In this document: positions 5,198-38,781 of the stretch, one piece after another
Numbering within the stretch: position 1 is the first letter of the stretch
Layout of the letters: every line of letters starts with the position of its first letter
Assembly (NCBI GenBank): GCA_005793215.1
Contig: SXPV01000071.1
Coordinates: 1-52,538 of the forward strand
DNA: 52,538 bases
Direction of reading: 5' to 3'
Source: Actinomycetota bacterium
GTDB lineage: Bacteria > Actinomycetota > Acidimicrobiia > Acidimicrobiales > Ilumatobacteraceae
The notes under the pieces: model-generated
Database searches by the model: none
Told to the model about the DNA's origin: nothing
What the model saw: the letters and a program-made list of their open reading frames with translations, nothing else
Program-made: the position numbers and the translations under genes

Positions 5198-5935
5198 GTG
5201 GGTGAACTCAGCGGGAAGGTCGCAATCGTTACTGGATCCTCGAGCGGAATCGGTGAATCCACGGCTCTTCGACTTGCCGAACTTGGTGCACACGTGGTGG
5301 TGAACTCCTCATCGTCGGTCGAAGCCGGCCAGAAGGTTGCGGCCTCGCTCGCGACCAAAGGTGCGTACGTGCAAGCCGACATTAGTGACCAAGCACAAGG
5401 CAAACGGCTGATCAAGGAAACGATCGACACCTTCGGCCGTCTCGACATCCTGGTGAACAACGCTGGTTGGACCACACTCGTGCCGCACAACGACCTGGAC
5501 GGCCTCACCGACGAGATCTTCGACAAAACATTCAAGGTGAACGTGTATGGAACATGGTGGCTCACCAAGGCGGCCATTCCACACCTGCAAAAGAGTGATG
5601 ACGGCAACGTGGTGAACATCACCTCAATTGCCGGGGTTCGCCCAGTTGGAAGTTCTATGGCGTACTCGATGACCAAAGCGGCACTTAACCACATGACGTT
5701 GTTGATGGCGAAGTCGTACGGACCAATTCGTTTCAATGCAGTGGCGCCAGGTTTGGTGCAGACCCCGTGGACGCAGGACTGGGGTGTCATGCATGATTTC
5801 GTTGCAAAGACCGCACCCATGAAGCGCTCGGCTTACGCCAGCGACTGCTCGGAGGCGGTGCTCGGCATCGTTCGCAACCCGCACATGACCGGGCAGGTGC
5901 TCGTGATTGACGGTGGGTTTACGCTCGTATCGTGA
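5198..5935 (+). CDS. Short-chain dehydrogenase/reductase (SDR) family oxidoreductase
   Basis: GKVAIVTGSSSGIG cofactor motif, NNAG, catalytic YSMTKAAL (YxxxK). GGAGG ribosome-binding site upstream of GTG 5198. Confidence 0.85.
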   Translation: MGELSGKVAIVTGSSSGIGESTALRLAELGAHVVVNSSSSVEAGQKVAASLATKGAYVQADISDQAQGKRLIKETIDTFGRLDILVNNAGWTTLVPHNDLDGLTDEIFDKTFKVNVYGTWWLTKAAIPHLQKSDDGNVVNITSIAGVRPVGSSMAYSMTKAALNHMTLLMAKSYGPIRFNAVAPGLVQTPWTQDWGVMHDFVAKTAPMKRSAYASDCSEAVLGIVRNPHMTGQVLVIDGGFTLVS

Positions 5936-7386
5936 CGACCGTACGTCAGTACAGCTCGAATCTGCCTGGAGCCGACGCTCACCCGTATCGAAGTGGCGCG
6001 TGGCGGCCCCAAACCAAAGAGCACACCACTCGTGACATGAAGGTGTCCGGCGAGATCCCGCGTGACTTGAACGGCGTGTATTTGCGCAACACCGAAAACC
6101 CACTCTTTGAATCAATTGGTCGTTACCACCCCTTCGACGGCGATGGAATGATCCACATGATGTCGTTCTGCGACGGTGAGGTGGAGTATCGCAATCGCTT
6201 CGTGCAAACTGATGGTCTGCGAGCCGAAGTCGATGTCGGACACGCATTGTGGGCAGGTCTTGCGGAGCCGCCGAGTAAGTCGCTGCGCGATGGCTCGTGC
6301 GCGCGTGGCCGAATGAAGGATGCCTCGAGCACCGACATCGTGGTGCACGCAGGTGTCGCGCTCTCGAGTTTTTATCAGTGTGGTGACCTGTACCGACTGG
6401 ATCCGCACACGTTGGACGGTCTCGGCAAGGAAACGTGGGGCGGTGAGTTTCCTGCTGCAGGAGTTTCGGCGCACACCAAAGTTGATGAACGCACCGGAGA
6501 ATTGTTGTTCTTCAACTATCAAACCACCGCACCGTTCCTGCACTACGGAGTGGTGTCGGCCGAGCGCCAATTGGTGCACTATGTTCCCATCGATTTGCCG
6601 GGTGCGCGCTTGCCACACGACATGGCCTTTACGCCGAACTACTCCATTCTCAATGACTGTCCGTTGTTCTGGGATCCCGACTTGATGGGGCGTGGTATCT
6701 ATGCCACCCGCTACTACCGCGACATGCCGATGCGCATCGGCATCATTCCGCGTTTTGGTGCGTCACAGGAGATTCGTTGGTTCGAGTGCGAATCCACGTT
6801 CGTATTGCACTGGATCAATGCGTGGGAGGAGGGCGACGACGTGGTGTTGGACGGCTACTTCGAAGACGACCCGTCACCGCGAGTCGCAACCGATTCCACC
6901 GTCGAAGCGAAGATGTTTCGCTATCTCGACCTGCACTCCATGAAGTCGCGACCGTACCGTTGGCGCTTCAACATGCGCACTGGGCAAGTGACGGAAGGGT
7001 ATTTGAGCGAGACCATCACCGAGTTCGGGATGATTGATCAAACCCGTGCGGGATTGCCCTATCGCTACGTGTATTCGGTGGTGCCGACGAAAGGAATGTT
7101 CACCTTCGATGGACTCATCAAACACGATGTGCGTACCGGGAGCGAAGAAGTGCTGATGTTCGGCAACGGTGTAGTCGGCAGCGAAACTGTCGTGGCGCGC
7201 AAACCAAATGCCACTGATGAAGATGACGCATGGCTTATCACTTTCACCTCCGATGTTCCCAACGATGTGTCGAACTGCCTGGTGTACGACGCAAAAGCAT
7301 TGAGTGCGGGGCCAGTAGCAACCGTGCAACTACCGGAACGAATCTCCAGCGGCACCCACGCTTGCTGGGCGGCAGCACGTAGTTGA
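5932..7386 (+). CDS. Carotenoid cleavage oxygenase (CCD / RPE65 / lignostilbene dioxygenase) family protein, copy 1
   Basis: 484 aa. YLRNTENPLFE..YHPFDGDGMIHMMSF, HDMAFTPNYSIL, FVLHWINAWEE and a C-terminal SSGTHACW are typical of the family. GTGA start/stop overlap with the SDR gene. Confidence 0.85.
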   Translation: MTTVRQYSSNLPGADAHPYRSGAWRPQTKEHTTRDMKVSGEIPRDLNGVYLRNTENPLFESIGRYHPFDGDGMIHMMSFCDGEVEYRNRFVQTDGLRAEVDVGHALWAGLAEPPSKSLRDGSCARGRMKDASSTDIVVHAGVALSSFYQCGDLYRLDPHTLDGLGKETWGGEFPAAGVSAHTKVDERTGELLFFNYQTTAPFLHYGVVSAERQLVHYVPIDLPGARLPHDMAFTPNYSILNDCPLFWDPDLMGRGIYATRYYRDMPMRIGIIPRFGASQEIRWFECESTFVLHWINAWEEGDDVVLDGYFEDDPSPRVATDSTVEAKMFRYLDLHSMKSRPYRWRFNMRTGQVTEGYLSETITEFGMIDQTRAGLPYRYVYSVVPTKGMFTFDGLIKHDVRTGSEEVLMFGNGVVGSETVVARKPNATDEDDAWLITFTSDVPNDVSNCLVYDAKALSAGPVATVQLPERISSGTHACWAAARS

Positions 7387-14694: not shown

Positions 14695-16053
14695 TTATCT
14701 GTTGTCGGGGATCCAGTTGCCGTGGAAGCCGTTCGGTACGCGAACCGGTAGGTGCACCACCGCAACCGGGTCATCGGTGATCGCTTGTGCATCGAAGATC
14801 GCGAGATCCGAGGTGTCGTTCTGGGTGTCGTGACGCAGGGTCATGACCCAGCCGTCATCCTCGGACTTCGCGCCATCGCGCGCGACGAACACCGGCTCGC
14901 CGTATCCGTAGCGCGGCTGGTCGGTGCGACGTTGTACTGACCCGTTGTCCACGTCGGTCTTGATCAAGGTGTCTTGGGCAAAGCCAGTCCCGATTCCTGA
15001 CGAGTATCCGAAGCGGTAGCGGTGACCGATCAGCGACTCGTTGACTCTCGGGAACTCTTGCGGGTGGCCGTCGATGACGTGTTCCGTGGATCGGCCAGTC
15101 CTGGCGTTGAGGCGCCAGCGTGTGAGTACGGGATCACCTTCGTTCGGCCCGCGACGGTCGCGGTCAAAGACTCGCGGGTGTCGCACTGCGTCGAGCACCA
15201 CTTCGTCGCCGTCGTCGTACGCGTTCATCGGATGGAAGAAGTAGCACGGGTCGATCGACACCCACTTCATGTCGCTGGCCGCACCGTCGCGCGGCAGCAG
15301 GCCGATGCGTGCTTCGTAGTTGTGGTCCCAGAAGTACGGGAAGCGCACGCCTTTCATCGCGGAGTCGAGGTTGAAGACGCAGGGAAGATCGAAGACGAGC
15401 GCGTACTTCTCGGTGATGGCCATGTCGTGCAGCATCGGGCCGCCCGGCAACGGAATGTCGACGTGCTTTCGAACACGTCCGTCGGTGCCGACCACGAGGT
15501 ACTGCACCTGATTGCCCCACGCCCAGTAGTACGCCATCACGTGCAACTCGCCAGTCTTCGGATCGCGCTTCGGGTGCGCCGAGAACGCGTGCGGAAGGGT
15601 GCCGCCGAAATTCGACACACGAACCGTGTCGAGTTCGTAACTCAGTTCGACGGGTGCAGAGCCGCCCTCGACAATCGCGTAGGTGCGCCCGGCGTGCCCA
15701 ATCACACTGGTGTTCGCCGAGAACGAAGCATGGCCGTCCGGCCAGTCCGACGGCGGGGGAGTTCCGCCGAGCACGTCGCACACGTCCTTGGTGCGGACCC
15801 AACGGTTGCGGTACCACGCAGCCCGACCATCATCGACTCGCACTCCGTGCACCATGCCGTGACCCAAGAACCAGTGATACGACTTTTCATCGACGGTTCC
15901 GGCCGGATTCGGCCCGTTGCGCAAGTAACGGCCGGTGAGTTCCGTGGGAATCGTGCCCGTCACGCGCAGGTCAGTGACGGTGACCTCTTCGTGCACCGGT
16001 GCGAGATTGTTGGCGAGATATGGATTCGACGAATTGCGCTCGATCGTTGTCAC
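14695..16053 (-). CDS. Carotenoid cleavage oxygenase (CCD / lignostilbene dioxygenase) family protein, copy 2
   Basis: 452 aa. YLRNGPNP..YHWFLGHGMVHGVR, HDMAITEKYALVFD, FFHPMNAYDD, C-terminal VPNGFHGNW. AGGAGG ribosome-binding site upstream of GTG 16053. Confidence 0.85.
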   Translation of the reverse strand: MTTIERNSSNPYLANNLAPVHEEVTVTDLRVTGTIPTELTGRYLRNGPNPAGTVDEKSYHWFLGHGMVHGVRVDDGRAAWYRNRWVRTKDVCDVLGGTPPPSDWPDGHASFSANTSVIGHAGRTYAIVEGGSAPVELSYELDTVRVSNFGGTLPHAFSAHPKRDPKTGELHVMAYYWAWGNQVQYLVVGTDGRVRKHVDIPLPGGPMLHDMAITEKYALVFDLPCVFNLDSAMKGVRFPYFWDHNYEARIGLLPRDGAASDMKWVSIDPCYFFHPMNAYDDGDEVVLDAVRHPRVFDRDRRGPNEGDPVLTRWRLNARTGRSTEHVIDGHPQEFPRVNESLIGHRYRFGYSSGIGTGFAQDTLIKTDVDNGSVQRRTDQPRYGYGEPVFVARDGAKSEDDGWVMTLRHDTQNDTSDLAIFDAQAITDDPVAVVHLPVRVPNGFHGNWIPDNR

Positions 16054-16095: not shown

Positions 16096-17793
16096 TCAAG
16101 TACGAAAGCCGCGGTATCCGTTCAGGGCCACGTCGGCGCACTGCTGGGCGTACGCAGGGAAGCCCGGCAGCGGCATGAAGACTCGCGGTTTGCCCGGCAC
16201 GTTGGTGCCGAGATACCACGAACTGCACGACTGGTACAGCGTCATTCCTGCAACCGTGTTTACGTGCTGCACCCACCGATCCTGCGCATCGGCGTCGGCC
16301 TCGATGGTCGGCGAGTGATTCACCTTCATCCAACTGATGCAGTCGGCAATCCATTCCACGTGGTGCTGAATGGACACGATCATGTTGGTGAGTACCGACG
16401 GACTTCCTGGCCCGGTGATGGTGAACAGGTTGGGAAACCCATGTACGGACAGCCCGAGGTAGTTCACCGGACCCGCCGACCATGCGTCACTGAGAGTCCG
16501 ACCATCCCTACCTGTGATGTCGATCTTGGAGATTGCGCCGGTCATGGCGTCGAACCCGGTGGCAAAGACGATCGAATCAAACTCGTGCTCGACACGTCGA
16601 CTCGATCCAGAGGTGCTCGACTTGTCATGGCTGGTCCCAGCGGCATTCTGCACGACGATGCCCTTCGCCGTAAACCGCTCGACTGGTTGTTCACGCAAGT
16701 CGATGAGTGACACATTTGGGCGATTGAACGTGTCGTAATACTCGGTGTCAACACACAGACGTTTGCAGCCGATGATGCTGTCAGGAGTGAGCTTTCGTGC
16801 CGTGTCGGGATCGTGCACCGTTGATCGAATCTTGTCGCGTACGAAGTCGGCGATGAGACGATTGGACTCCGGGTTGGTGAGCGCATCATTGAATGCGCCG
16901 AGAAAGAGCAATCCACCCTTTTGCCAGCGTGCTTCGAGGGCAGCCCGACGTTCGTCTTCGCTCACTTCGCATGCACCATGTGGTCCCGTTGGGGTATCAC
17001 CCCCGAGGGCCGCACGAGTGAGACTGTTCTTTCGGCGAAACTCGGCGTAGTTGGCCTTGATGTCGGCCACATACTCGGGTGAGAGTTGCTGGTTTCGTGC
17101 AGGAATGGAATATGCGGGCGTGCGTTGCATCACCGTGAGATGTGCTGCCTGCTTTGCGATGAGGGGGATGGACTGAATCCCCGATGACCCTGTGCCGAAC
17201 ACTGCAACGCGTTGACCCGTGAAATCCACTCCCTCGTGGGGCCACGCCCCGGTGTGATACGTCCGGCCCGCAAAGAGATGGTCATCGGGAAAGCGCGGAA
17301 TGTTCGCCGATGACAAACAGCCGGTTGCGAGTACGACGAATCGAGCCGTCAGAGCAACGTCCTGCTGGTGGTCTGGATCATCACTTGATCGAGTGGTGAC
17401 CTCCCAGATATCGCCATGCCATTGCAGCGAAGCAACAGTGGTATTGAACGAGATGTCGCGACGCAAATTGAAGCGGTCGGCCACATGTTCCGCGTAACGC
17501 AGAATCTCGGGTTGCGTGGCGTACTTCTCCGACCATTCCCATTCCTGCTGCAATTCGTCGGAGAATTGGTACGAGTATTCGAGGCTGGGCACGTCGCAAC
17601 GCGCGCCCGGATAGCGGGTCCAATACCACGTGCCACCCACGCCGCCGCCACGCTCGAAGACTCGGGCGGTGAATCCTGTCTGTCGGGCCCGATGCAACAT
17701 GTAGAGGCCCGCAAAGCCGGCACCGACAATCGCAACGTCAACGTCTGGAGACGATGGGGTGCTACTCGCTGTGTTGATGGACGCGGCTCCCAT
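16096..17793 (-). CDS. Baeyer-Villiger (type I flavin-dependent) monooxygenase
   Basis: Two Rossmann motifs (VAIVGAGFAG, VAVFGTGSSG) and the BVMO fingerprint FxGxxxHxxxWP present as FAGRTYHTGAWP. Start taken at ATG 17793; the track maximum is 17871. Confidence 0.9.
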   Translation of the reverse strand: MGAASINTASSTPSSPDVDVAIVGAGFAGLYMLHRARQTGFTARVFERGGGVGGTWYWTRYPGARCDVPSLEYSYQFSDELQQEWEWSEKYATQPEILRYAEHVADRFNLRRDISFNTTVASLQWHGDIWEVTTRSSDDPDHQQDVALTARFVVLATGCLSSANIPRFPDDHLFAGRTYHTGAWPHEGVDFTGQRVAVFGTGSSGIQSIPLIAKQAAHLTVMQRTPAYSIPARNQQLSPEYVADIKANYAEFRRKNSLTRAALGGDTPTGPHGACEVSEDERRAALEARWQKGGLLFLGAFNDALTNPESNRLIADFVRDKIRSTVHDPDTARKLTPDSIIGCKRLCVDTEYYDTFNRPNVSLIDLREQPVERFTAKGIVVQNAAGTSHDKSSTSGSSRRVEHEFDSIVFATGFDAMTGAISKIDITGRDGRTLSDAWSAGPVNYLGLSVHGFPNLFTITGPGSPSVLTNMIVSIQHHVEWIADCISWMKVNHSPTIEADADAQDRWVQHVNTVAGMTLYQSCSSWYLGTNVPGKPRVFMPLPGFPAYAQQCADVALNGYRGFRT

Positions 17794-17861
17794 GCGTACA
17801 TTGTTGCCGATTCGCACTACGGTGATGCAGCAGAAACCACAATGCCCATGATTGGAGCACA

Positions 17862-18500
17862 ATGACGACATCGAAGGCCAGTGAGCGATTGATCGATCAC
17901 ATGCGAGGTGTTCGATATGGCGAGGTGCTGCCGATTTTCCAACGGGATGATGGCTTGCACGCCGAGGTGTACGGCACCCAACTGTTGAACGATTGTCCGC
18001 AGGAGTTGTGGGAGAAGCTCGACCCGAAGGCCATCGCCGCCGAGTTGGGTGCGATGTTCGTCAAGATGAACGGCCCACGTCATTGGGTGTTGGACGGATT
18101 TGGCACCAAGGTCGCCCCGATGGAGCCCGTGTTACGGGAATTCGGCGGAATCCAGTTTCGCCGAATTGCGACCCTACCGCTTGGCGACAAACTCGGCAGT
18201 GGCCCGTACTCCGAAGTCAGCGTGAATCGTGGTGCAGTATTTTTCTGGGATGCCGGTAAGCCGGTGTTCGAACTGGTGAACCCGTCTGGCAAGAACTACG
18301 TCATGCAAGCGCTATGCAAGGGCGTGGATCCGTCGATGTCGGAGGAGTCGCTCGCATCGCTCGGCGATCGACTCGCGTTACCAACCGGTTGGTCGTATCG
18401 CACCCGCATACTCACCGAGGAATTGGTGATCGACACCACCGCATCACTCGCAACAGTGTTGCAAGACGAGTTCGAGAACTCCTACACATTGCCCAACTAG
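17862..18500 (+). CDS. Hypothetical protein, 212 aa, no family recognised
   Basis: Clean ORF with ATG start and coding-like composition, no TM segment or signal peptide. Divergent from the BVMO gene (68-bp spacer). Confidence 0.6.
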   Translation: MTTSKASERLIDHMRGVRYGEVLPIFQRDDGLHAEVYGTQLLNDCPQELWEKLDPKAIAAELGAMFVKMNGPRHWVLDGFGTKVAPMEPVLREFGGIQFRRIATLPLGDKLGSGPYSEVSVNRGAVFFWDAGKPVFELVNPSGKNYVMQALCKGVDPSMSEESLASLGDRLALPTGWSYRTRILTEELVIDTTASLATVLQDEFENSYTLPN

Positions 18501-24665: not shown

Positions 24666-25154
24666 GTGCCACAACTTGAGGGCAACTACATTCCCAGCAC
24701 CATGCAGTGGGTGCGAGATCAGGTGGATACCTATGAGCGAACCGGTGGTCGTGAGGCAGGCACACTGCGTGAAACGGGAATTCCAGTCATCATCGTGTCG
24801 ATGCGTGGAGCAACATCCGGAAGCATTCGCAAGATCGCTTTAATGCGCGTGGAACATGGGGGTGAGTATGCGCTCGTTGCGTCGTACGGCGGTGCACCGC
24901 AACATCCCGCGTGGTACCACAACTTGGTGGCCCACCCAACGGAAGTCACCGTGCAGGACGGTCCTGAACCATTCTTCGTTCACGTGCGTTTGGTGGAAGG
25001 CGCAGAGTACGACACGTGGTGGCAGAGAAGTGTGGCGGTGTTTCCGCCGTACGCGCAATACAAGGAAAAGACGTCTCGTCGCATACCTCTCTTCGTTGCG
25101 TCCAGGGTGACTGTCGAGCACCACCACGGTGGCACGGTTCGCGCCCAAGGATGA
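24666..25154 (+). CDS. Deazaflavin (F420H2)-dependent nitroreductase family protein (Ddn / DUF385-like)
   Basis: 162 aa. PVIIVSMRGATSGSIRKIALM..YALVASYGGAPQHPAWYHNLVAHP is the family pattern. Confidence 0.75.
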   Translation: MPQLEGNYIPSTMQWVRDQVDTYERTGGREAGTLRETGIPVIIVSMRGATSGSIRKIALMRVEHGGEYALVASYGGAPQHPAWYHNLVAHPTEVTVQDGPEPFFVHVRLVEGAEYDTWWQRSVAVFPPYAQYKEKTSRRIPLFVASRVTVEHHHGGTVRAQG

Positions 25155-27017: not shown

Positions 27018-27632
27018 ATGGGAGAAGTACAGCGCCATCCCGAACGTGGTAATTCCGAGCAGGAAGTGATTCGAGGAATTCTGGCTGAAGGCTTGGTCGC
27101 ACATGTTGGCATCATCGATGCACAGGGTGCACCAGTGGTCATTCCCATGGCGTATGCGCTCGATGGCGACAGCATTTTGATTCACGGATCGGTCGCCAGT
27201 CGATTGATGCGCACTGGAGGGCCAATTTGCATCACGGTCACATTGTTGGATGGACTTGTGGTTGCGCGATCGCTGTTCAACTCGTCAATGAACTATCGGA
27301 GCGTGGTCGTCACCGGTATTCCTGATGTGTTGGAGGGCGAGGAACGCGAGCGGGCACTCCTGGTGTTGAGCGACTTTCTCCTGCCGGGTCGGGTGGGTCA
27401 CGCACGCGAACCAAATCGACCAGAAATTCGACAAACCACGGTGTGGCGGCTCTCGCTCGTCGGGGCATCGGCAAAGATTCGTACGGGTCCACCCAAGGAA
27501 GACCCACCAAGCGACTACGAGCTGCCGTATTGGGGTGGAGTAGTGCCCGTACGAACGGTGTTCGGTCCAGCCGAATCGGATGGTGCTGGAGTCGACATTC
27601 CGCTGCCCGACCACATTCGACGTCTCAGCTGA
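27018..27632 (+). CDS. Pyridoxamine 5'-phosphate oxidase-like flavin/deazaflavin-binding split-barrel protein
   Basis: 204 aa. HPERGNSEQEVIRGILAEGLVAHVG..PVVIPMAYALDGDSILIHGS matches the PNPOx-family pattern as I remember it. Confidence 0.7.
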   Translation: MGEVQRHPERGNSEQEVIRGILAEGLVAHVGIIDAQGAPVVIPMAYALDGDSILIHGSVASRLMRTGGPICITVTLLDGLVVARSLFNSSMNYRSVVVTGIPDVLEGEERERALLVLSDFLLPGRVGHAREPNRPEIRQTTVWRLSLVGASAKIRTGPPKEDPPSDYELPYWGGVVPVRTVFGPAESDGAGVDIPLPDHIRRLS

Positions 27633-27680: not shown

Positions 27681-28049
27681 TTAGTTGGACAGTGCTTCGA
27701 TGTAATCGACGATGTCGGAGATCTGTTCGTCGGTGAGATTGTTGTACGGCATCACGACTGAGTAACCGACACGCTTTTTCATATCGGGATATTTGATCGA
27801 TTCGATGAGGTACTCGCGGTCAACGACTCCGGACCCACCACCCTTGAAGGCAACGGACTGACCGATGATGCCTTGCCACGTTGGGCCCGTTCCGCCACCG
27901 AAGTCGGAACCATGACACGACGCACAGCCGGATTGCTGGGACAGCTGCAGGCCGCGCTCGGCCGACGGCGACAAGTCGACGGCGAGCGGTTGTGCTGAAG
28001 CGCAACCAACCAGCGCCATTGCGAGTGCGCCGAGAAACAACTTTCGCAT
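27681..28049 (-). CDS. Class I c-type cytochrome, lipoprotein
   Basis: Lipobox LVGCAS after signal peptide MRKLFLGALAMA, haem-binding CASCHG, distal Met context VVMPYNNL. Start at ATG 28049; the track maximum is 28082. Confidence 0.8.
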   Translation of the reverse strand: MRKLFLGALAMALVGCASAQPLAVDLSPSAERGLQLSQQSGCASCHGSDFGGGTGPTWQGIIGQSVAFKGGGSGVVDREYLIESIKYPDMKKRVGYSVVMPYNNLTDEQISDIVDYIEALSN

Positions 28050-28239
28050 GTTGTTCAGGTTACTTGTTACGTCGGGGACCACCGTACGCCGGCATTGGAG
28101 TGGCAGTGAGAACGCGACATTGAAAATCGGAGTAAGTCAGGCGTATCAAACATTGCGAGGACAACCGTCACTTGCTGCGCGCACCAGGAGTTCCTACGGT
28201 GGGACCGAGCGCACGAGCGCTTCAAGAGACGGAGGGGTC

Positions 28240-31503: not shown

Positions 31504-32262
31504 CTAAGAGTGGTCGGGGAGAATCACCGAGCGACCATCCGTGGTCGCCGTTACTCGAATCTTCTGGTGGTAGACATCGGAAAGTAGTGCCTCGGTGAGC
31601 ACCGTACGTGGTTCGCCGCTTGCCACACATCGACCTTGGTGCAACACCACAACTTCGGTGGCAAATCGCATCGCCACGTTGAGATCGTGCAACACGGCGA
31701 TGACACCGCGTCCCTCGTCCACCAGCGATCGCGCAATCGCGAGGAATCGTTCTTGTTGCCCAATGTCGAGCACCGCAGTGGGTTCGTCGAGGAACAGCAA
31801 TGGTGTGTCCTGTGCCAGTACTCGCGCCATGGAGACACGTGCCTGTTCACCGACGGACAGCGTCTGATACGTACGCCCAGCCAACGCCATGACCTCCATA
31901 CGTTGCATTGCGGCGGTGATTCGTTCATCGTCTTGCTCGTTCAGCCACGGGCTACGACCCATCGTCACGATCTCGCGAACGGTGAATGGGAACGAAATGG
32001 CAATCTGCTGCGGTAGCACGGCGCGCACCCGTGCCAGATCCCGGGGTGCCAGGGTTGACAATTCGCGGCCATTGATGGATACCGAACCACCGGTGATCGG
32101 GAAGTCGCCGGCGATTGCACCAAGCAAGGTGGACTTTCCTGCACCATTGGGGCCGAGAACCGCCAGCAACTCGCCGGACTTCACGTTGAGCGACACATCT
32201 TCCAACAGCGTCGTGCCACCGCGCGACACCACGAGATGTGAAGCGCTGAGTGTCGCAGTCAT
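31504..32262 (-). CDS. hmuV: Haem (hemin) ABC importer ATP-binding protein
   Basis: GPNGAGKSTLL, RAVLPQQIAISFPFTVREIVTMGRSPW (HmuV-type pattern), LSVGEQARV, LLFLDEPTAVLD. ATGA overlap with the hmuU stop places the start at 32262. Confidence 0.8.
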   Translation of the reverse strand: MTATLSASHLVVSRGGTTLLEDVSLNVKSGELLAVLGPNGAGKSTLLGAIAGDFPITGGSVSINGRELSTLAPRDLARVRAVLPQQIAISFPFTVREIVTMGRSPWLNEQDDERITAAMQRMEVMALAGRTYQTLSVGEQARVSMARVLAQDTPLLFLDEPTAVLDIGQQERFLAIARSLVDEGRGVIAVLHDLNVAMRFATEVVVLHQGRCVASGEPRTVLTEALLSDVYHQKIRVTATTDGRSVILPDHS

Positions 32263-33290
32263 GCCCAACCGCCTTGACTGCGACGAGTGCTACGCAAGAG
32301 CAACAGGAAGAACGGTGCGCCAATCAATGCAGTCACCACGCCCAGTGGAAGTTCCGCCGGTGACAACAAGGAGCGTGCCGCGAGATCAGCCAGCAGAGTG
32401 ACACTTGCACCGAGCAGTGCGGCAGTCCACAACAGATGTTGGTGCCGCGGACCAAGCACGATTCGCATGATGTGTGGCACGAGCAAACCCACGAAGGCGA
32501 TCATTCCCGTGGCTGCCACGGCACTGGATGCGAGTAGTCCCACTACGGCAATTGCCTGCAGTCGAACCGGCTCCACTCGCACACCGAGATGGGTGGCAGG
32601 TCGATCACCAAGTGCAAGTGTGTCGAGCACTCGCGCAAACTTTGCACTCATCGCCATGCCCAGTAACGCGAGTGGAATGACGAGTCCAACCGCCTTCCAT
32701 GTTGCAAGTCCAAGGGTGCCAAGGCTCCAGAACGTGACAGAACGAATTTCGTCGTCATCTGCGACGAATACGGCGAATCCAATCACCGCACCGGCAAATG
32801 CATTGATGGCAATTCCGGTGAGAATGAGTGTGACCACCTCGGTTTTGCCGTCCGAGCGTGAGAGCACGTACACCAAGGCAGTGGAGAGAGTGCCGCCAAG
32901 GAATGCCGCCAACTGAACACCGAGCGGCAACTGATTGAGTCCGACGATGATGGCGATCACCGCGCCAACCGCGGCACCGGCAGAAACACCAACCGTCGCC
33001 GGTTCGGCCAGAGGATTTCGAAAGATTCCCTGCATGATCACACCAGCAACGGCAAGGCTCGCCCCAACGATGATGGCGAGCACGATGCGTGGGAGTCGAA
33101 CCTGCCAGAACACGTTGTGTGCAACGACTTCCGATGTGTCGCGAGAAGGGCCATCACCGATGATGCCGAAGAGATCCGACAACGAGATTCGAAACGCTCC
33201 AGTTGCCAGTGACAAGAGCGTGGTGACCGTGAGTAGTGCCACCAGGAAGATTGCAACTGCGGGAAGGCTGGTGCGGCGGGCGTTGGTCAT
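32259..33290 (-). CDS. hmuU: FecCD-family iron/haem ABC importer permease
   Basis: 343 aa, about 9-10 TM. RLPRIVLAIIVGASLAVAGVIMQGIFRNPLAEP is the FecCD signature region. ATGA overlap with the hmuT stop. Confidence 0.85.
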   Translation of the reverse strand: MTNARRTSLPAVAIFLVALLTVTTLLSLATGAFRISLSDLFGIIGDGPSRDTSEVVAHNVFWQVRLPRIVLAIIVGASLAVAGVIMQGIFRNPLAEPATVGVSAGAAVGAVIAIIVGLNQLPLGVQLAAFLGGTLSTALVYVLSRSDGKTEVVTLILTGIAINAFAGAVIGFAVFVADDDEIRSVTFWSLGTLGLATWKAVGLVIPLALLGMAMSAKFARVLDTLALGDRPATHLGVRVEPVRLQAIAVVGLLASSAVAATGMIAFVGLLVPHIMRIVLGPRHQHLLWTAALLGASVTLLADLAARSLLSPAELPLGVVTALIGAPFFLLLLRSTRRSQGGWA

Positions 33291-34276
33291 GTGTCGCTAC
33301 TAAAGGTGTCGAGAATTTCCGCCAACCGAGCGATGAGCGAACCGGTTCGCGGACCAAATGAGAGTAGTAGGTCATCATCCACCGCGATAACTGCACGTGC
33401 AGCTGCGGCTCGGGTACTCGACACGCCGGGTAGCGCCAGCAGCCCGTCGATTCCACCGACGGAATCCAAGCCGCGAGTCATCACCAGGAGAACGTCGGGA
33501 TCGGATTGCACGATGGCCTCGGCTGTGAGAGGAGTGAACGCTGACAGGCCGTTGAGCGCACCGACATCAATTGCCCCGGTTGCCGCGACGAGTTCGTCGG
33601 CTCCAGAACCAGAACCACCGAGCAAGTACACCGATGCAGTTCCTCGAACATAAAGGAAGGCAACACGAGGCGTGGACGCGTACGCACCGACATTCTTCAG
33701 TGCATCGTCGATGGCTCGTTGCGTGAGGTTCACGAGATCTTCGCCAGCTTGTGGAATGCCGAGTGCATTCGAGATCATCTCCACCCGCGACGGGAGTTCG
33801 GACAACGTCCATACCTCCGGTGCGATGAGTACCGCCACACCAGCTCCGCGCAGCTGCTGTAATGCCTCGGGTGGACCGGTTCGAGTGTCCCCGATGACCA
33901 CGCTTGGCCGGAGCGCAAGCACGCTTTCTGCGCTGATGTCGTGTCCATTGCTCACTTCCGTGACGTCAGCCAACGTGGCGAGGGTGGTGGTGGCATCACG
34001 ACCGATGATGGAATCCTTCATGCCAAGCGAGACGACAATCTCTGCAATCGCTTCGTTGAGAACGATGATTCGTGACGTGTCGGTGACCTCCACCACAACT
34101 CCGTCGGCACCGGTCGTCGTGGTGGGAAGTGCGGGAGTTTCAGGCTCGATCGTGGGAAGCGGGAAATCTTGCGACAGAATGAACCGTGCGCCGACCTCCG
34201 ATTGTTGGGTGCCGTCGCTGCAACCGACCAACGCCATGATGATCAACGAACCAACCACCAACGTTCGCCGCAACAT
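33287..34276 (-). CDS. hmuT: Haem/iron-complex ABC substrate-binding lipoprotein
   Basis: Signal peptide plus lipobox MLRRTLVVGSLIIMALVGCS from ATG 34276. Class III periplasmic binding-protein layout (RIIVLNEAIAEIVVSLG.., PSVVIGDTR, PDVLLVM). The track extension to 34591 is antisense to the Thr-rich linker of the divergent gene. Confidence 0.8.
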   Translation of the reverse strand: MLRRTLVVGSLIIMALVGCSDGTQQSEVGARFILSQDFPLPTIEPETPALPTTTTGADGVVVEVTDTSRIIVLNEAIAEIVVSLGMKDSIIGRDATTTLATLADVTEVSNGHDISAESVLALRPSVVIGDTRTGPPEALQQLRGAGVAVLIAPEVWTLSELPSRVEMISNALGIPQAGEDLVNLTQRAIDDALKNVGAYASTPRVAFLYVRGTASVYLLGGSGSGADELVAATGAIDVGALNGLSAFTPLTAEAIVQSDPDVLLVMTRGLDSVGGIDGLLALPGVSSTRAAAARAVIAVDDDLLLSFGPRTGSLIARLAEILDTFSSDT

Positions 34277-34289
34277 CGCCCTCAAGGGT

Positions 34290-34985
34290 ATGAGGACGGG
34301 GCGCAGGCGCCGAACTCCGACCGTGAGACGTTGGTTACCTGCAACTGCAGTGGTCCTCGTGCTGATGGGGTGTGGAACCAACGACAACGACGTTTCCGTG
34401 ACATCATCTCCCTCGGCAACCGTGGAATCAACGACCACCACCGTGACGGTCGCCGAGTCGACCACGACGGTGTCCGCGGCAGCGTCAACGTCGACCGCCG
34501 CCACCACGATTCCGCTTGTCGGCTCCACCTCCACAACGACCACCGTCACCACGACGCCGACAGTGGCAAAGCCGAAGCCGCGATTGACCATAAGTCAGAC
34601 CACGGGGTTGGATCCCAAGGGTTCCATCGTCTCTGTTCGTGGCTTTGGGTTTGATGTGACCAAGGGGATCTACGTGTTCGTGTGCAATCAGGCTGAGTGG
34701 AACGCCGCGCGACGATGTGTCGGCGGCGTGAACGTCGATGGCTCATCCCCGCTATCGCAGTGGGTGTCGTCGAATCCTCCTGGGTATGCCATAGGTCTCA
34801 CGGTTCCCTTCGTGGCCGACGGATCTTTTGTCGTACCTTTGCTCGTGAGAGCCACTGATGATTCGACCAACCTCATTGACTGCACCAAAGAGCGGTGTGG
34901 AATCGTTGCGTTTGCCGATCACACGAGGCGCGATGATCGTTCGCAAGACGTTTTCGTGCCGATAAGTTTCACCGCTGGTTCATAA
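34290..34985 (+). CDS. Secreted lipoprotein: Thr/Ser-rich linker plus C-terminal neocarzinostatin-fold-like domain
   Basis: MRTGRRRRTPTVRRWLPATAVVLVLMGCG (lipobox), then a linker rich in T, S and V. Domain TISQTTGLDPKGSIVSVRGFGF..VCx10C..IDCTKERCGIVAF..VPISF parallels the neocarzinostatin apoprotein (TPSSGLSDG..V.G.G, Cx9C, DCTTAAC, AISF). The ORF upstream of 34290 is antisense to hmuT. Confidence 0.6.
   Translation: MRTGRRRRTPTVRRWLPATAVVLVLMGCGTNDNDVSVTSSPSATVESTTTTVTVAESTTTVSAAASTSTAATTIPLVGSTSTTTTVTTTPTVAKPKPRLTISQTTGLDPKGSIVSVRGFGFDVTKGIYVFVCNQAEWNAARRCVGGVNVDGSSPLSQWVSSNPPGYAIGLTVPFVADGSFVVPLLVRATDDSTNLIDCTKERCGIVAFADHTRRDDRSQDVFVPISFTAGS
34392..34580 (+). other. Low-complexity Thr/Ser/Val-rich linker coding region
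   Basis: Encodes VSVTSSPSATVESTTTTVTVAESTTTVSAAASTSTAATTIPLVGSTSTTTTVTTTPTVAKPKP. The biased composition also creates a spurious open frame on the opposite strand. Confidence 0.8.
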
Positions 34986-35015
34986 GTACAACAGCATCTC
35001 ACCAAAGGAGCCGCA

Positions 35016-35813
35016 ATGAATAGGAAGTTCTTCCCGGGTCTGATCGTCGGTGCACTCATCGGTGTCGTTCCGTTGGTTCCCGTATCGCCAGTCTCGGCAG
35101 CAGTCGTGGTAACGCCGAGCAAATCGACCGGGCTCGTTGACGGCGAGCGGATCACATTGACATTGTCGGGGATTCCCGCCACCCAAGGTGTGTACATTCG
35201 CCAGTGCTACAAGCCAGTCACTGGTCAGCGTGAATCAACCGGTCTCAAGTGCAACGGCAGTTTGAAGCGAATCGACGAAATGATCTGGGCAACCATGTTC
35301 GGTGCGCGAGGTTCGCAGTCTGCATCCGGCACCTTGACGCTTCCATTGAAAGACAAAGTGGTGGTGTACGAGGCGGATGGAACCACGATCAAGGAAACCC
35401 TGAGTTGTGGATTTACCGACTGTGCAATCTTCGTGCACCGAGATCACCTCGGTTTGCAGGATGTTGCGCTGGATACGGTGGTGCCGTTGACGTTCCTTGG
35501 CAAGCAGGCAATCAAGGCCCGGGTGATTGGTCTTCCCAAGGTCGACGTCGCCCAGCAAGTCGGCGGCAGTGTCCAGCTGAAGAACTCCGCGCTGGTGACG
35601 GATCGCAAGTCGATCGTTCGTATAACCAGTCGAGCCTTTCAACAAACACCGGAGTCCGGCACCTCGCCTTCGAAGGTGTGCACCGTGTCGAAAGGTGCAA
35701 CCATCACGACCATTCGTTTCGTGAAGAAGGGAATTTGCGTACTGGAGTTGACGGCCAAGGCCACCGAGACGTACCAGCGATTCACTGCAACGTTCACGTA
35801 CACGGTGGGCTGA
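35016..35813 (+). CDS. Secreted protein: N-terminal neocarzinostatin-fold-like domain plus C-terminal Ig-like domain; paralogue of the 34290 domain
   Basis: AAGGAG ribosome-binding site and signal peptide MNRKFFPGLIVGALIGVVPLVPVSPVSA. Then VVVTPSKSTGLVDGERITLTLSGIP..QCx14C..LSCGFTDCAIFV..VVPLTF. C-terminal CTVSKGATITTIRFVKKGICVLELTA resembles a bacterial Ig-like module. Confidence 0.6.
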   Translation: MNRKFFPGLIVGALIGVVPLVPVSPVSAAVVVTPSKSTGLVDGERITLTLSGIPATQGVYIRQCYKPVTGQRESTGLKCNGSLKRIDEMIWATMFGARGSQSASGTLTLPLKDKVVVYEADGTTIKETLSCGFTDCAIFVHRDHLGLQDVALDTVVPLTFLGKQAIKARVIGLPKVDVAQQVGGSVQLKNSALVTDRKSIVRITSRAFQQTPESGTSPSKVCTVSKGATITTIRFVKKGICVLELTAKATETYQRFTATFTYTVG

Positions 35814-36819: not shown

Positions 36820-38781
36820 TCAGGTGGTCCTATTCATGCGACGAATGTTGATGTACATGATGGGCAGCACCGAGACAAAGATGAGAACGGCGAGCGCAGC
36901 GCCGAGGCCAATATCCAAGTTGTAGAAGGCTTCTCGGTACATGTTGTTGGAAAGCACTTCGGTGCCGAAATTGCCGTTGGTCATCACCTTGACGATGTCG
37001 AACACCTTCATCACCAACACCATGATGGTGGTGGCAACCACGCCGATGGTGGGGCCGATTTGCGGCATGGTGACGCGCCAGAAAATCTGTTGAGTATCGG
37101 CACCGTCGATTGCCGCTGCCTCCGTAAGTTCGCGCGGCACCGCCCGAATAGCGGCGGAGAAGATGACCATGGCAAAGCCCGTTTCGGTCCATACGAGTAC
37201 GAGCATGAGCCAGAAGTTGTTGAACGGCGGTTCCTGCAAGAAGTTGATGGGGTCGGCAATAATTTCGCCGGACTTTCCGACCCGTTGGCCACCCAGTCCC
37301 GTGCCGACCAACTGCCAATATCGCAGTGAGAACCACACTCCGCCGCTCACGATCACTGCGGGGAGTGCGACTTTTGTCCACTGACGACGAACAATCGAGC
37401 GAGTCGCAGCGAGCAGAGCCAAGACCGTCGGTACCAGCACGAGAACACCTAGGAACAATCTGGCGAGGCCATCCCCGGTGCTCAGGCTGCCAAGGCCGAC
37501 CCACAGCGCGTTGAGCGTTCCGGATTGAGGTTTGGATGCATCACGCGAAATGTAGACGAGACGGAAAATGACGGATGCGCCAACCATCGAGACGGCGAGC
37601 GGCATGAAGATGATTGCTTTGGCGGTGCGCTCGAAGCGCACTCCGTCGGCCAATACTGCGATGAGTAGGCCGAGTCCGGTCGAGAGTGCCGTAACGACGA
37701 AGACCCACCACAAATTGTTGACCAGCGTCCCGCGCAACGTGGAAAACACGGCAAATCCGGCGAACGTTATGGCAAGAACAAGTGGCGGAGCGCTTGCGCT
37801 ACCGAACTCCACGAAGTGCCCCGAACGACGGCGATTGCGAATGGCCAGTAAGACGAATAGGAAAAAGCACGCTCCGGCCACCATCGTGAGGCGACTCGTC
37901 CATAGTGATCCGATACGTGACATGTCCCAAGCTTTTGGATCGCGAAAGATCGAGATGTAGTTGTCGATTCCAACGAATGTCTTCGCTTTCCGATCGAGCA
38001 GTGACAAGTAGATGGTTCTTAGTGATGGAATCACCAATGCGATGGCAACGAACCCAAGCGCAGGAGCCAGGAACACTGCGGCGCGTGCGCGACGCTCGGT
38101 GGCGACGCGGCGCTCACTACTGACTGGTGACACCAAAGCCCAACGCGTGCCGATGAGAGAGCCAATGACGGCACACAATGCAATGCCCGAATATCTCGAC
38201 GTCGATCCGAGATCGCCGAACCCCCAGGCACCGAGCACCAGACCCGCACTGGTGCCCAATAGCGCGAGACGAACCACCACGAGGTTGCGTATCGATTGGT
38301 GTATTGCTGCCCCGATTGCGGCGAAGAGTAAGGAGGAAATCGCGGCACTCAGTGCCAGTTCATCAATTATCGGCTTGGGCTGAGCAGCATCCACGAGGAG
38401 TGCTCCGAGTAGTCCTCCAACTGTTCCGATGAACAGCACGTTGACGATCACTCGTTGCGCAAGTCGACTCTGCTGCTCAGCCACCCAGCTAGAAATGCCG
38501 ACGGCGAATGCGGTAGCAGTCGGCAGCCACACCCACTGGGCAAAGGATTGGACAAAGGAGTCACCGGATGCCGCGGTGGAGTACTGCGTGAGGCGGTTAC
38601 CGCTCAAGAGCCCTGCCACGAGAAAACCCGCAAGGGCGCGAGCGAAGTAGGTGGCACGAGACGAGGTGTCTCGCAGGCGATTGACGAATTGATTGGCGAG
38701 CACCCACAGTGCGCCACTTAGGCCTACGGCGATTGCCACGGTGATGAAGGTGGAGAGAATTTGTTCGATGAAGTCCCTCAT
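36820..38781 (-). CDS. Carbohydrate ABC importer permease (MalF-type) with an extra N-terminal multi-TM extension of about 225 aa
   Basis: 653 aa. The canonical permease core starts near RARAAVFLAPALGFVAIALVIPSLRTIYLSL, with EAA loop EAAAIDGADTQQIFWRVTMPQ. The preceding region has about 7 hydrophobic segments and no motif I recognise. Confidence 0.8.
   Translation of the reverse strand: MRDFIEQILSTFITVAIAVGLSGALWVLANQFVNRLRDTSSRATYFARALAGFLVAGLLSGNRLTQYSTAASGDSFVQSFAQWVWLPTATAFAVGISSWVAEQQSRLAQRVIVNVLFIGTVGGLLGALLVDAAQPKPIIDELALSAAISSLLFAAIGAAIHQSIRNLVVVRLALLGTSAGLVLGAWGFGDLGSTSRYSGIALCAVIGSLIGTRWALVSPVSSERRVATERRARAAVFLAPALGFVAIALVIPSLRTIYLSLLDRKAKTFVGIDNYISIFRDPKAWDMSRIGSLWTSRLTMVAGACFFLFVLLAIRNRRRSGHFVEFGSASAPPLVLAITFAGFAVFSTLRGTLVNNLWWVFVVTALSTGLGLLIAVLADGVRFERTAKAIIFMPLAVSMVGASVIFRLVYISRDASKPQSGTLNALWVGLGSLSTGDGLARLFLGVLVLVPTVLALLAATRSIVRRQWTKVALPAVIVSGGVWFSLRYWQLVGTGLGGQRVGKSGEIIADPINFLQEPPFNNFWLMLVLVWTETGFAMVIFSAAIRAVPRELTEAAAIDGADTQQIFWRVTMPQIGPTIGVVATTIMVLVMKVFDIVKVMTNGNFGTEVLSNNMYREAFYNLDIGLGAALAVLIFVSVLPIMYINIRRMNRTT

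Follow-up and report, generated by a model that had tools for sequence, protein, structure and literature searches.

The stretch of DNA considered here, referred to below as the window, is the 52,538-nucleotide (nt) contig SXPV01000071.1 of a freshwater actinobacterium assigned to the Ilumatobacteraceae (assembly GCA_005793215.1). It carries an operon, hmuTUV, for a predicted haem importer of the ATP-binding cassette (ABC) type and, diverging from it, two genes for exported proteins, protA and protB (the names are used for genes and products alike), that share a domain resembling the neocarzinostatin apoprotein. A preliminary description made from the sequence alone had singled out this arrangement as a candidate haem-capture module.

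31504–32262, minus strand: hmuV, haem ABC transporter ATPase; passes the NCBIfam equivalog NF010068, and its ATG overlaps the hmuU stop codon
32259–33290, minus strand: hmuU, FecCD-type permease (Pfam FecCD, E = 1.7e-92); ATGA overlap with hmuT
33287–34276, minus strand: hmuT, lipoprotein substrate-binding protein, predicted to bind haem (Peripla_BP_2, E = 6e-32)
34277–34339, no strand: divergent start and control region; two DNA blocks at least 90% conserved when the window is aligned with 18 related loci
34290–34985, plus strand: protA, A-type lipoprotein, with a likely real start at GTG 34324 (family alignment, AlphaFold, Foldseek)
35005–35011, plus strand: protB Shine-Dalgarno sequence AAAGGAG, read within the 30-nt spacer downstream of the protA stop codon
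35016–35813, plus strand: protB, B-type secreted protein (family alignment; AlphaFold mean predicted local distance difference test, pLDDT, 85)

The predicted haem importer and the divergent gene pair

The preliminary description read the three importer genes as translationally coupled and their ATPase as haem-type, and both readings hold. The start/stop overlap ATGA is present at the hmuT/hmuU and hmuU/hmuV junctions (ACATGACC and GCATGACT), and HmuV contains the expected pattern, RAVLPQQIAISFPFTVREIVTMGRSP, scoring 296 bits against NF010068 (haem ABC ATP-binding protein; cut-off 261). hmuT starts at the ATG at 34276–34274, a longer listed open reading frame (ORF) being an artefact, and its product begins with a signal peptide and lipobox, MLRRTLVVGSLIIMALVGC. 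Each of the eleven top PDB matches of HmuT is a haem-binding protein (E = 2e-50 to 1e-22), the list being led by a Roseiflexus protein (5gj3, E = 2e-50) and by HmuT of Corynebacterium glutamicum and its variants (5az3, E = 5e-48), with BhuT, Yersinia pestis HmuT, ShuT, PhuT and HutB as further haem-binding relatives; the first vitamin B12 binder appears only at E = 2.6e-8. The FLYVRGT of the window protein aligns to FLYARGT of C. glutamicum HmuT and retains its Tyr-x-Arg motif, which supplies the axial Tyr and a propionate-binding Arg in the C. glutamicum structure. One deposited variant of C. glutamicum HmuT is changed precisely at the motif Arg. The second ligand of the C. glutamicum protein, a His, is replaced by Thr in the window protein, as it is in the Roseiflexus protein.

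A haem-type ATPase, a FecCD permease and a class III substrate-binding protein related to haem binders are encoded together in one operon, the composition of an HmuTUV-type importer. Because HmuV passes NF010068 and HmuT is closest to solved haem binders, hmuTUV appears, as far as sequence can tell, to be a haem importer. Import of vitamin B12 or of a siderophore is unlikely, given the gap in E-values between the haem binders and the first B12 binder and the match of HmuV to the haem equivalog. As the preliminary description had noted for HtaA, NEAT and haem oxygenase, the window holds no gene for any of these, nor for DUF2470, as judged by Pfam searches of nearly all its ORFs and by tblastn. 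The lack of a haem oxygenase in the window is compatible with the use of haem as a cofactor or with a degrading enzyme encoded elsewhere.

On the opposite strand, protA encodes a lipobox (…VLMGC) whose Cys28 is conserved in at least 90% of the family alignment. There follows a disordered linker of about 65 residues, rich in Thr, Ser and Val (AlphaFold pLDDT <50 at residues 17–86), and a single compact beta domain of the neocarzinostatin-like type at residues ~95–228 (nt 34572–34973; pLDDT ~90). protB begins with a Sec signal peptide (residues 1–28, ending VSA/A) and has no anchor; its neocarzinostatin-like domain (residues 30–162, nt 35103–35501) precedes a C-terminal immunoglobulin (Ig)-like domain with a conserved Cys pair (residues 165–265, nt 35508–35810). 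The two genes form one operon, since the 30-nt spacer between them carries the protB Shine-Dalgarno sequence. The divergent unit of a lipoprotein gene and a signal-peptide protein gene described earlier is therefore borne out, although the protA start assigned to it at 34290 is not conserved across loci: its ATG is TAC in 8 of the 18 related loci. The conserved candidate is a (G/C/A)TG at 34324, which is GTG in the window. The distance between the hmuT and protA starts, 13 nt if protA begins at 34290, ranges from 13 to 47 nt.

The two conserved blocks of the intervening region, AGGGTA.GAG (34284–34294) and TGAGACGT..GTTAC (34325–34339), were defined over 19 loci including the window. The second includes the codons AGA and TTA, which are rare in this 58% GC genome, and this suggests constraint at the nucleotide level, as in a promoter or operator. 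The mRNA of hmuT may lack a leader, given a TACCCT on the minus strand 8 nt upstream of the ATG. A scan of the divergent region for sigma-70 consensus promoters and a search for inverted repeats found nothing. The Thr/Val-rich linker of protA also creates long 'shadow' ORFs on opposite strands (33287–34591, minus; 33672–34985, plus) that inflate the apparent lengths of the hmuT and protA ORFs, and in one related locus (L040, 7146–7568) the gene caller apparently took a 140-residue shadow ORF in place of the A-type gene.

The neocarzinostatin-like domain and its family

The landmarks that the preliminary description had matched to the neocarzinostatin family in both exported proteins are present exactly as claimed: an N-terminal strand T/S…GL.DG…V.V.G.G, a first Cys pair spaced Cx10C and Cx14C, a second pair spaced Cx4C in protA and protB alike, and terminal strands VPISF and VPLTF. 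These shared features lie far beyond chance and are kept in 419 distinct domain instances. When AlphaFold models were compared with the PDB by Foldseek, enediyne apoproteins were the best full-domain matches of both proteins. For protA the only three matches below E = 1e-3 were 2mcm, 1nco and 2cbq (macromomycin, neocarzinostatin and a neocarzinostatin variant; TM-score 0.73–0.77), and for the first domain of protB the matches were 1j48, 2mcm and 1nco (C-1027, macromomycin and neocarzinostatin; TM-score 0.70–0.74). Both canonical disulfide positions of the seven-stranded Ig-like sandwich are kept in the two proteins. The domain profile aligns to neocarzinostatin with an hhalign probability of 90% and places a conserved Tyr opposite neocarzinostatin Asp33, a residue that lines the chromophore cleft; this correspondence serves as a lead, not a test.

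Profile hidden Markov models gave a weaker result for the window proteins themselves. protB scores 16.9 bits against PF00960 (E = 0.006), below the cut-off of 25, and 32.3 bits against NF040680, the NCBIfam model for enediyne antibiotic chromoproteins (E = 8e-8; cut-off 86), while protA has no PF00960 match at E ≤ 1. Among 119 representatives of the family, 44 match PF00960 at E ≤ 1e-4, the best at 8e-28. The parallel drawn earlier with the neocarzinostatin family thus stands for the fold and the disulfides but not by PF00960 alone, and the domains of protA and protB are modelled as neocarzinostatin-like because of structure, profiles and relatives rather than the Pfam scores of the window proteins. 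Neither protein has a Pfam match to HtaA (PF04213) or NEAT at E ≤ 1, and the hhalign probability between the family profile and a CR-domain alignment, built from solved structures and one Nonomuraea HtaA, is 0.1%; HtaA or NEAT identity is ruled out on these grounds.

When 1.84 billion representative proteins, clustered at 50% identity, were searched exhaustively with a profile, 1,293 clusters matched at E ≤ 1e-3, of which 680 reached E ≤ 1e-10 and 298 reached E ≤ 1e-30. Among 197 sampled members, mainly the best representative matches, 130 carry one copy of the domain, 51 carry two and 16 carry three to five. Across the family, anchoring is by transmembrane helix, WxL domain or lipid. The family signature reads G-x-Y-x3-C…W…C-x4-C…D-H-x4-D-x3-D…P-x2-F, and the positions that hardly vary across the 419 domain instances are G30, Y32 (96%), C36, C49, G51, W61 (96%), C98 and C103 (100%), D110 (94%), H111 (92%), D116, D120, P124 and F127. 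Enediyne apoproteins do not share the Tyr, Trp and Asp-His, which therefore mark the family as a distinct subfamily with a conserved site of its own; these positions include residue types that commonly ligate haem.

In sequence, no PDB entry comes nearer to the family than ThiX of C. glutamicum (7QHM chain M), which the protA profile matches at E = 2.3e-12 and the protB profile at 3.3e-6. The protA family profile matches it over residues 16–166, and ThiX keeps the G-x-Y, W, Cx4C and DH motifs and the protA plan of a lipobox, a Ser/Thr-rich linker and a homologous C-terminal domain; it differs in having been found bound to a respiratory complex. Cryo-electron microscopy of the C. glutamicum bcc-aa3 supercomplex has identified ThiX as a lipoprotein subunit, of unknown function and with a soluble domain that was not resolved (PMC8795186). 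That soluble domain is predicted to be neocarzinostatin-like, because ThiX is a clear homologue of protA that keeps the Y, W, Cx4C and DH signature.

Linkage to haem genes in other Actinobacteria

In Ilumatobacteraceae-type metagenome-assembled genomes from freshwater and estuarine sources, hmuVUT diverges from protA-protB in all 24 loci for which the upstream flank is available, and the entire 10-kb neighbourhood is syntenic. Other arrangements come from more distant lineages. Thermomonospora echinospora encodes a 209-residue neocarzinostatin-like protein with a C-terminal transmembrane anchor, whose gene overlaps the start of a Peripla_BP_2 gene which is followed in order by FecCD, ABC_tran, DUF2470 and Heme_oxygenase genes. 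The neocarzinostatin-like gene is also the first gene before hmuTUV in Actinomadura and in Nonomuraea; in the latter, hmuTUV is followed by a sortase gene and by a gene for a 746-residue HtaA protein, which is a true CR-domain protein (E = 3e-22 to the C. glutamicum HtaA structures). Start/stop overlaps join the neocarzinostatin-like gene to hmuT in the Streptosporangiales. In a metagenomic actinobacterium (L044), a gene for a protein made of DUF2470, a transmembrane segment and two neocarzinostatin-like domains precedes hmuTUV and haem oxygenase, with two HtaA genes adjoining.

Several proteins join the domain directly to haem-uptake components. A 567-residue protein (L043) combines neocarzinostatin-like and HtaA domains and is encoded beside a Peripla_BP_2 gene, and P0253 is a single ORF in which the domain is joined to a cytoplasmic DUF2470 domain. 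In P0262 and P0360 the domain is joined to HmuT through a transmembrane helix and then a lipobox, although these two may represent read-through of abutting genes instead of true fusions. The survey of gene neighbourhoods that the preliminary description had proposed as a check therefore came out in its favour, as did the profile searches and the structure comparison that it had also suggested: homologues in distant Actinobacteria share operons with hmuTUV, haem oxygenase, DUF2470 and HtaA genes, and some are fused to HtaA, HmuT or DUF2470. Read from these gene orders, the haem link is independent of the Ilumatobacteraceae lineage.

Three haem loci of the Streptosporangiales carry further neocarzinostatin-like paralogues and DUF916-like surface proteins on the opposite strand (L034, 6118–9891 and 14249–16489; L036, 3740–7899; L033, 36–1956). 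One such paralogue ends in a C-terminal transmembrane helix, and a second in a domain of WxL type that shares 49–53% identity with the C-terminal end of the Nonomuraea HtaA protein, so that neocarzinostatin-like and HtaA ligand domains are mounted on the same anchor. These loci resemble a WxL-type surface cluster, here in Actinobacteria and apparently devoted to haem.

A proposed haem relay and competing explanations

We consider it somewhat probable (about 0.6) that protA and protB are extracytoplasmic haem-capture and relay proteins serving HmuTUV. As would be expected of surface haem receptors, they carry export signals and are genetically linked to a haem transporter. Direct support comes from the fold, the export signals, the operon structure, the haem-type importer, and the recurrent linkage and fusions in other Actinobacteria; haem binding, the ligand residues and the order of transfer are the parts that we infer. 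In the proposed relay, protB, being unanchored and either secreted or wall-associated, would act as a hemophore-like catcher of free or released haem outside the cell. protA, its flexible Thr/Ser-rich stalk of ~65 residues spanning the wall, would receive this haem or capture it directly and would pass it to the lipoprotein HmuT, which would then dock on HmuU2V2, where ATP would drive import. The candidate for the haem ligand is the Tyr of the G-x-Y motif, which is nearly invariant, with the D-H motif as its putative partner.

Such a relay would be analogous, with a different domain, to the HtaA to HtaB to HmuT pathway and to the IsdB/IsdH to IsdA to IsdC to IsdE pathway. The likeness to HtaA, HtaB and ChtA of Corynebacterium lies in exported, anchored or released beta-rich proteins encoded beside hmuTUV; in the Streptosporangiales the neocarzinostatin-like gene even takes the position of htaA as the first gene before hmuT, and the CR domain and the neocarzinostatin-like family each have a conserved Tyr and His. 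The two domains nevertheless show no sequence or profile relation, their fold classes differ and the neocarzinostatin-like domain has two disulfides, while they occur together in several genomes or fused in one protein. The NEAT-based Isd relay and IsdX hemophores of Firmicutes resemble the present family in having an Ig-like beta-sandwich in one to five copies per surface protein, in having both secreted and anchored members, and in handing over to a Peripla_BP_2 lipoprotein, a step that is a proposal here; multi-NEAT and multi-CR receptors are thus mirrored by the anchored neocarzinostatin-like architectures of one to five copies. The family differs in lacking a NEAT Pfam match or YxxxY motif and in belonging to another phylum, and whereas NEAT proteins are mainly LPXTG-anchored, its members are held by lipid, a C-terminal transmembrane helix or WxL. 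Neocarzinostatin, macromomycin and C-1027 provide the best full-domain structural matches (TM-score 0.70–0.77), with both disulfides and the N- and C-terminal strand motifs in common, and they are carriers of a hydrophobic small ligand; the window proteins differ from them in their extra loops, their lipoprotein stalk or second Ig-like domain, and their Y…W…DH…D…D signature.

Several observations weigh against a haem-capture role. A freshwater Micrococcales-like lineage (55–62% GC, one member labelled Micrococcales) has an A-type/B-type pair of the same architecture at a fixed position between pirin/purS-purQ-purL and TetR/purC-purD, and none of its seven loci (L031, L032, L037, L038, L039, L041 and L042) has hmuTUV within 8–10 kb of the pair. 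ThiX, a subunit of a respiratory supercomplex, has no known role in haem uptake. The 24 Ilumatobacteraceae loci count as roughly one observation owing to shared ancestry, because their whole neighbourhood is syntenic. In other genomes the domain accompanies HtaA and does not replace it. The control region between hmuT and protA has no match to an IdeR/DtxR operator with up to three mismatches allowed, and the D-H-x4-D-x3-D motif might equally have a structural role or bind Ca2+. The TetR gene adjacent to the Micrococcales-like pair might regulate it.

The most serious competitor, though clearly the less likely explanation, is that protA and protB are parts of the haem-uptake machinery that do not themselves bind haem, and instead bind cytochromes or other haemoproteins or serve as a wall-spanning dock or scaffold for HmuT, HtaA or other receptors. 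This would produce the same genomic linkage as haem capture, and it would sit well with the co-occurrence of the domain with genuine HtaA haem binders, with ThiX as a lipid-anchored accessory subunit of a membrane complex, and with the frequency of Ig-like folds in stalk and adhesin domains. protA, however, consists of an anchor, a linker and one domain, which leaves only that domain to carry the function; nor does the window encode another haem binder that could be scaffolded, and the closest structural relatives are dedicated small-ligand carriers.

A little less probable again is a general envelope role unrelated to haem, in a surface structure, in handling another small molecule or a metal, or as a respiratory accessory, the adjacency to hmuTUV then being non-functional. 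The Micrococcales-like pair beside purine and TetR genes and the presence of ThiX on the bcc-aa3 supercomplex would both fit, as would the occurrence of other neocarzinostatin-like surface proteins in WxL/DUF916-like clusters and among sortase substrates and the diverse architectures of a large family. Against this, repeated independent membership of hmuTUV operons is hard to obtain by chance, as are the start/stop overlaps with hmuT and the fusions to HtaA, HmuT and DUF2470. Identity as true enediyne apoproteins or as self-resistance binders for a secondary metabolite, to which the matching fold and weak PF00960 and NCBIfam matches might point, is very improbable and was rejected, since those scores (16.9 against 25 bits and 32 against 86) lie far below the cut-offs, the scanned ORFs of the window include no genes for polyketide or enediyne biosynthesis, the pair is flanked by genes for a haem importer and for a sugar ABC transporter, and neocarzinostatin has no lipoprotein anchor, stalk or Y/W/DH signature.

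If protA and protB do capture and relay haem, a surface relay feeding an ABC importer would be of a known kind, and the domain proposed for it here would be new. Surface haem relays are known from Firmicutes, which use NEAT domains, and from Corynebacteria, which use CR domains; we know of no extracellular haem receptor in most Actinobacteria, including the very abundant planktonic lineages of fresh and marine waters. A search of full texts in Creative Commons-licensed PubMed Central articles and bioRxiv found nothing linking neocarzinostatin-like domains, PF00960/IPR002186 or ThiX to haem, and the only surface protein described there with such a domain was an uncharacterised sortase substrate of Actinoplanes. 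External haem at picomolar levels is a requirement of some planktonic lineages, acI among them (bioRxiv 10.1101/2021.01.11.426183). On a broader proposition, for which we see the odds as evenly balanced, the neocarzinostatin-like 'Y…W…DH' domain would join NEAT and CR/HtaA as a third class of haem-binding domain on Gram-positive surfaces, one that evolved independently and is spread through the Actinomycetota, including abundant freshwater Acidimicrobiia living on picomolar haem, and ThiX would by extension be a haem-handling subunit. The gap in actinobacterial receptors would then be filled by a large, uncharacterised domain family that recurs in hmuTUV, haem oxygenase and HtaA loci, and its sequence signature could be used to annotate haem scavenging in metagenomes. 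The enediyne apoprotein fold would have an older, housekeeping role as a ligand carrier, and a testable function would be on offer for ThiX, so far unexplained although its respiratory supercomplex is well studied.

Other genes of the window

At 3.5–7 kb from hmuV lie genes for a protein of the F420H2-dependent quinone reductase family (24666–25154, plus strand), a Pyridox_ox_2 split-barrel protein (27018–27632, plus strand) and a small cytochrome c (27681–28082, minus strand), which are syntenic with hmuV in most related loci. The split-barrel superfamily includes haem- and biliverdin-handling enzymes, so one of these proteins might replace the absent haem oxygenase. Two genes for RPE65-type carotenoid cleavage oxygenases (5932–7386, plus strand; 14695–16053, minus strand) lie near a flavin monooxygenase gene (16096–17871). 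On the other side of the locus, convergent with protB, a sugar-ABC permease gene (36820–38781, minus strand) encodes a protein of 653 residues, about twice the usual length, with a long extra N-terminal hydrophobic region.

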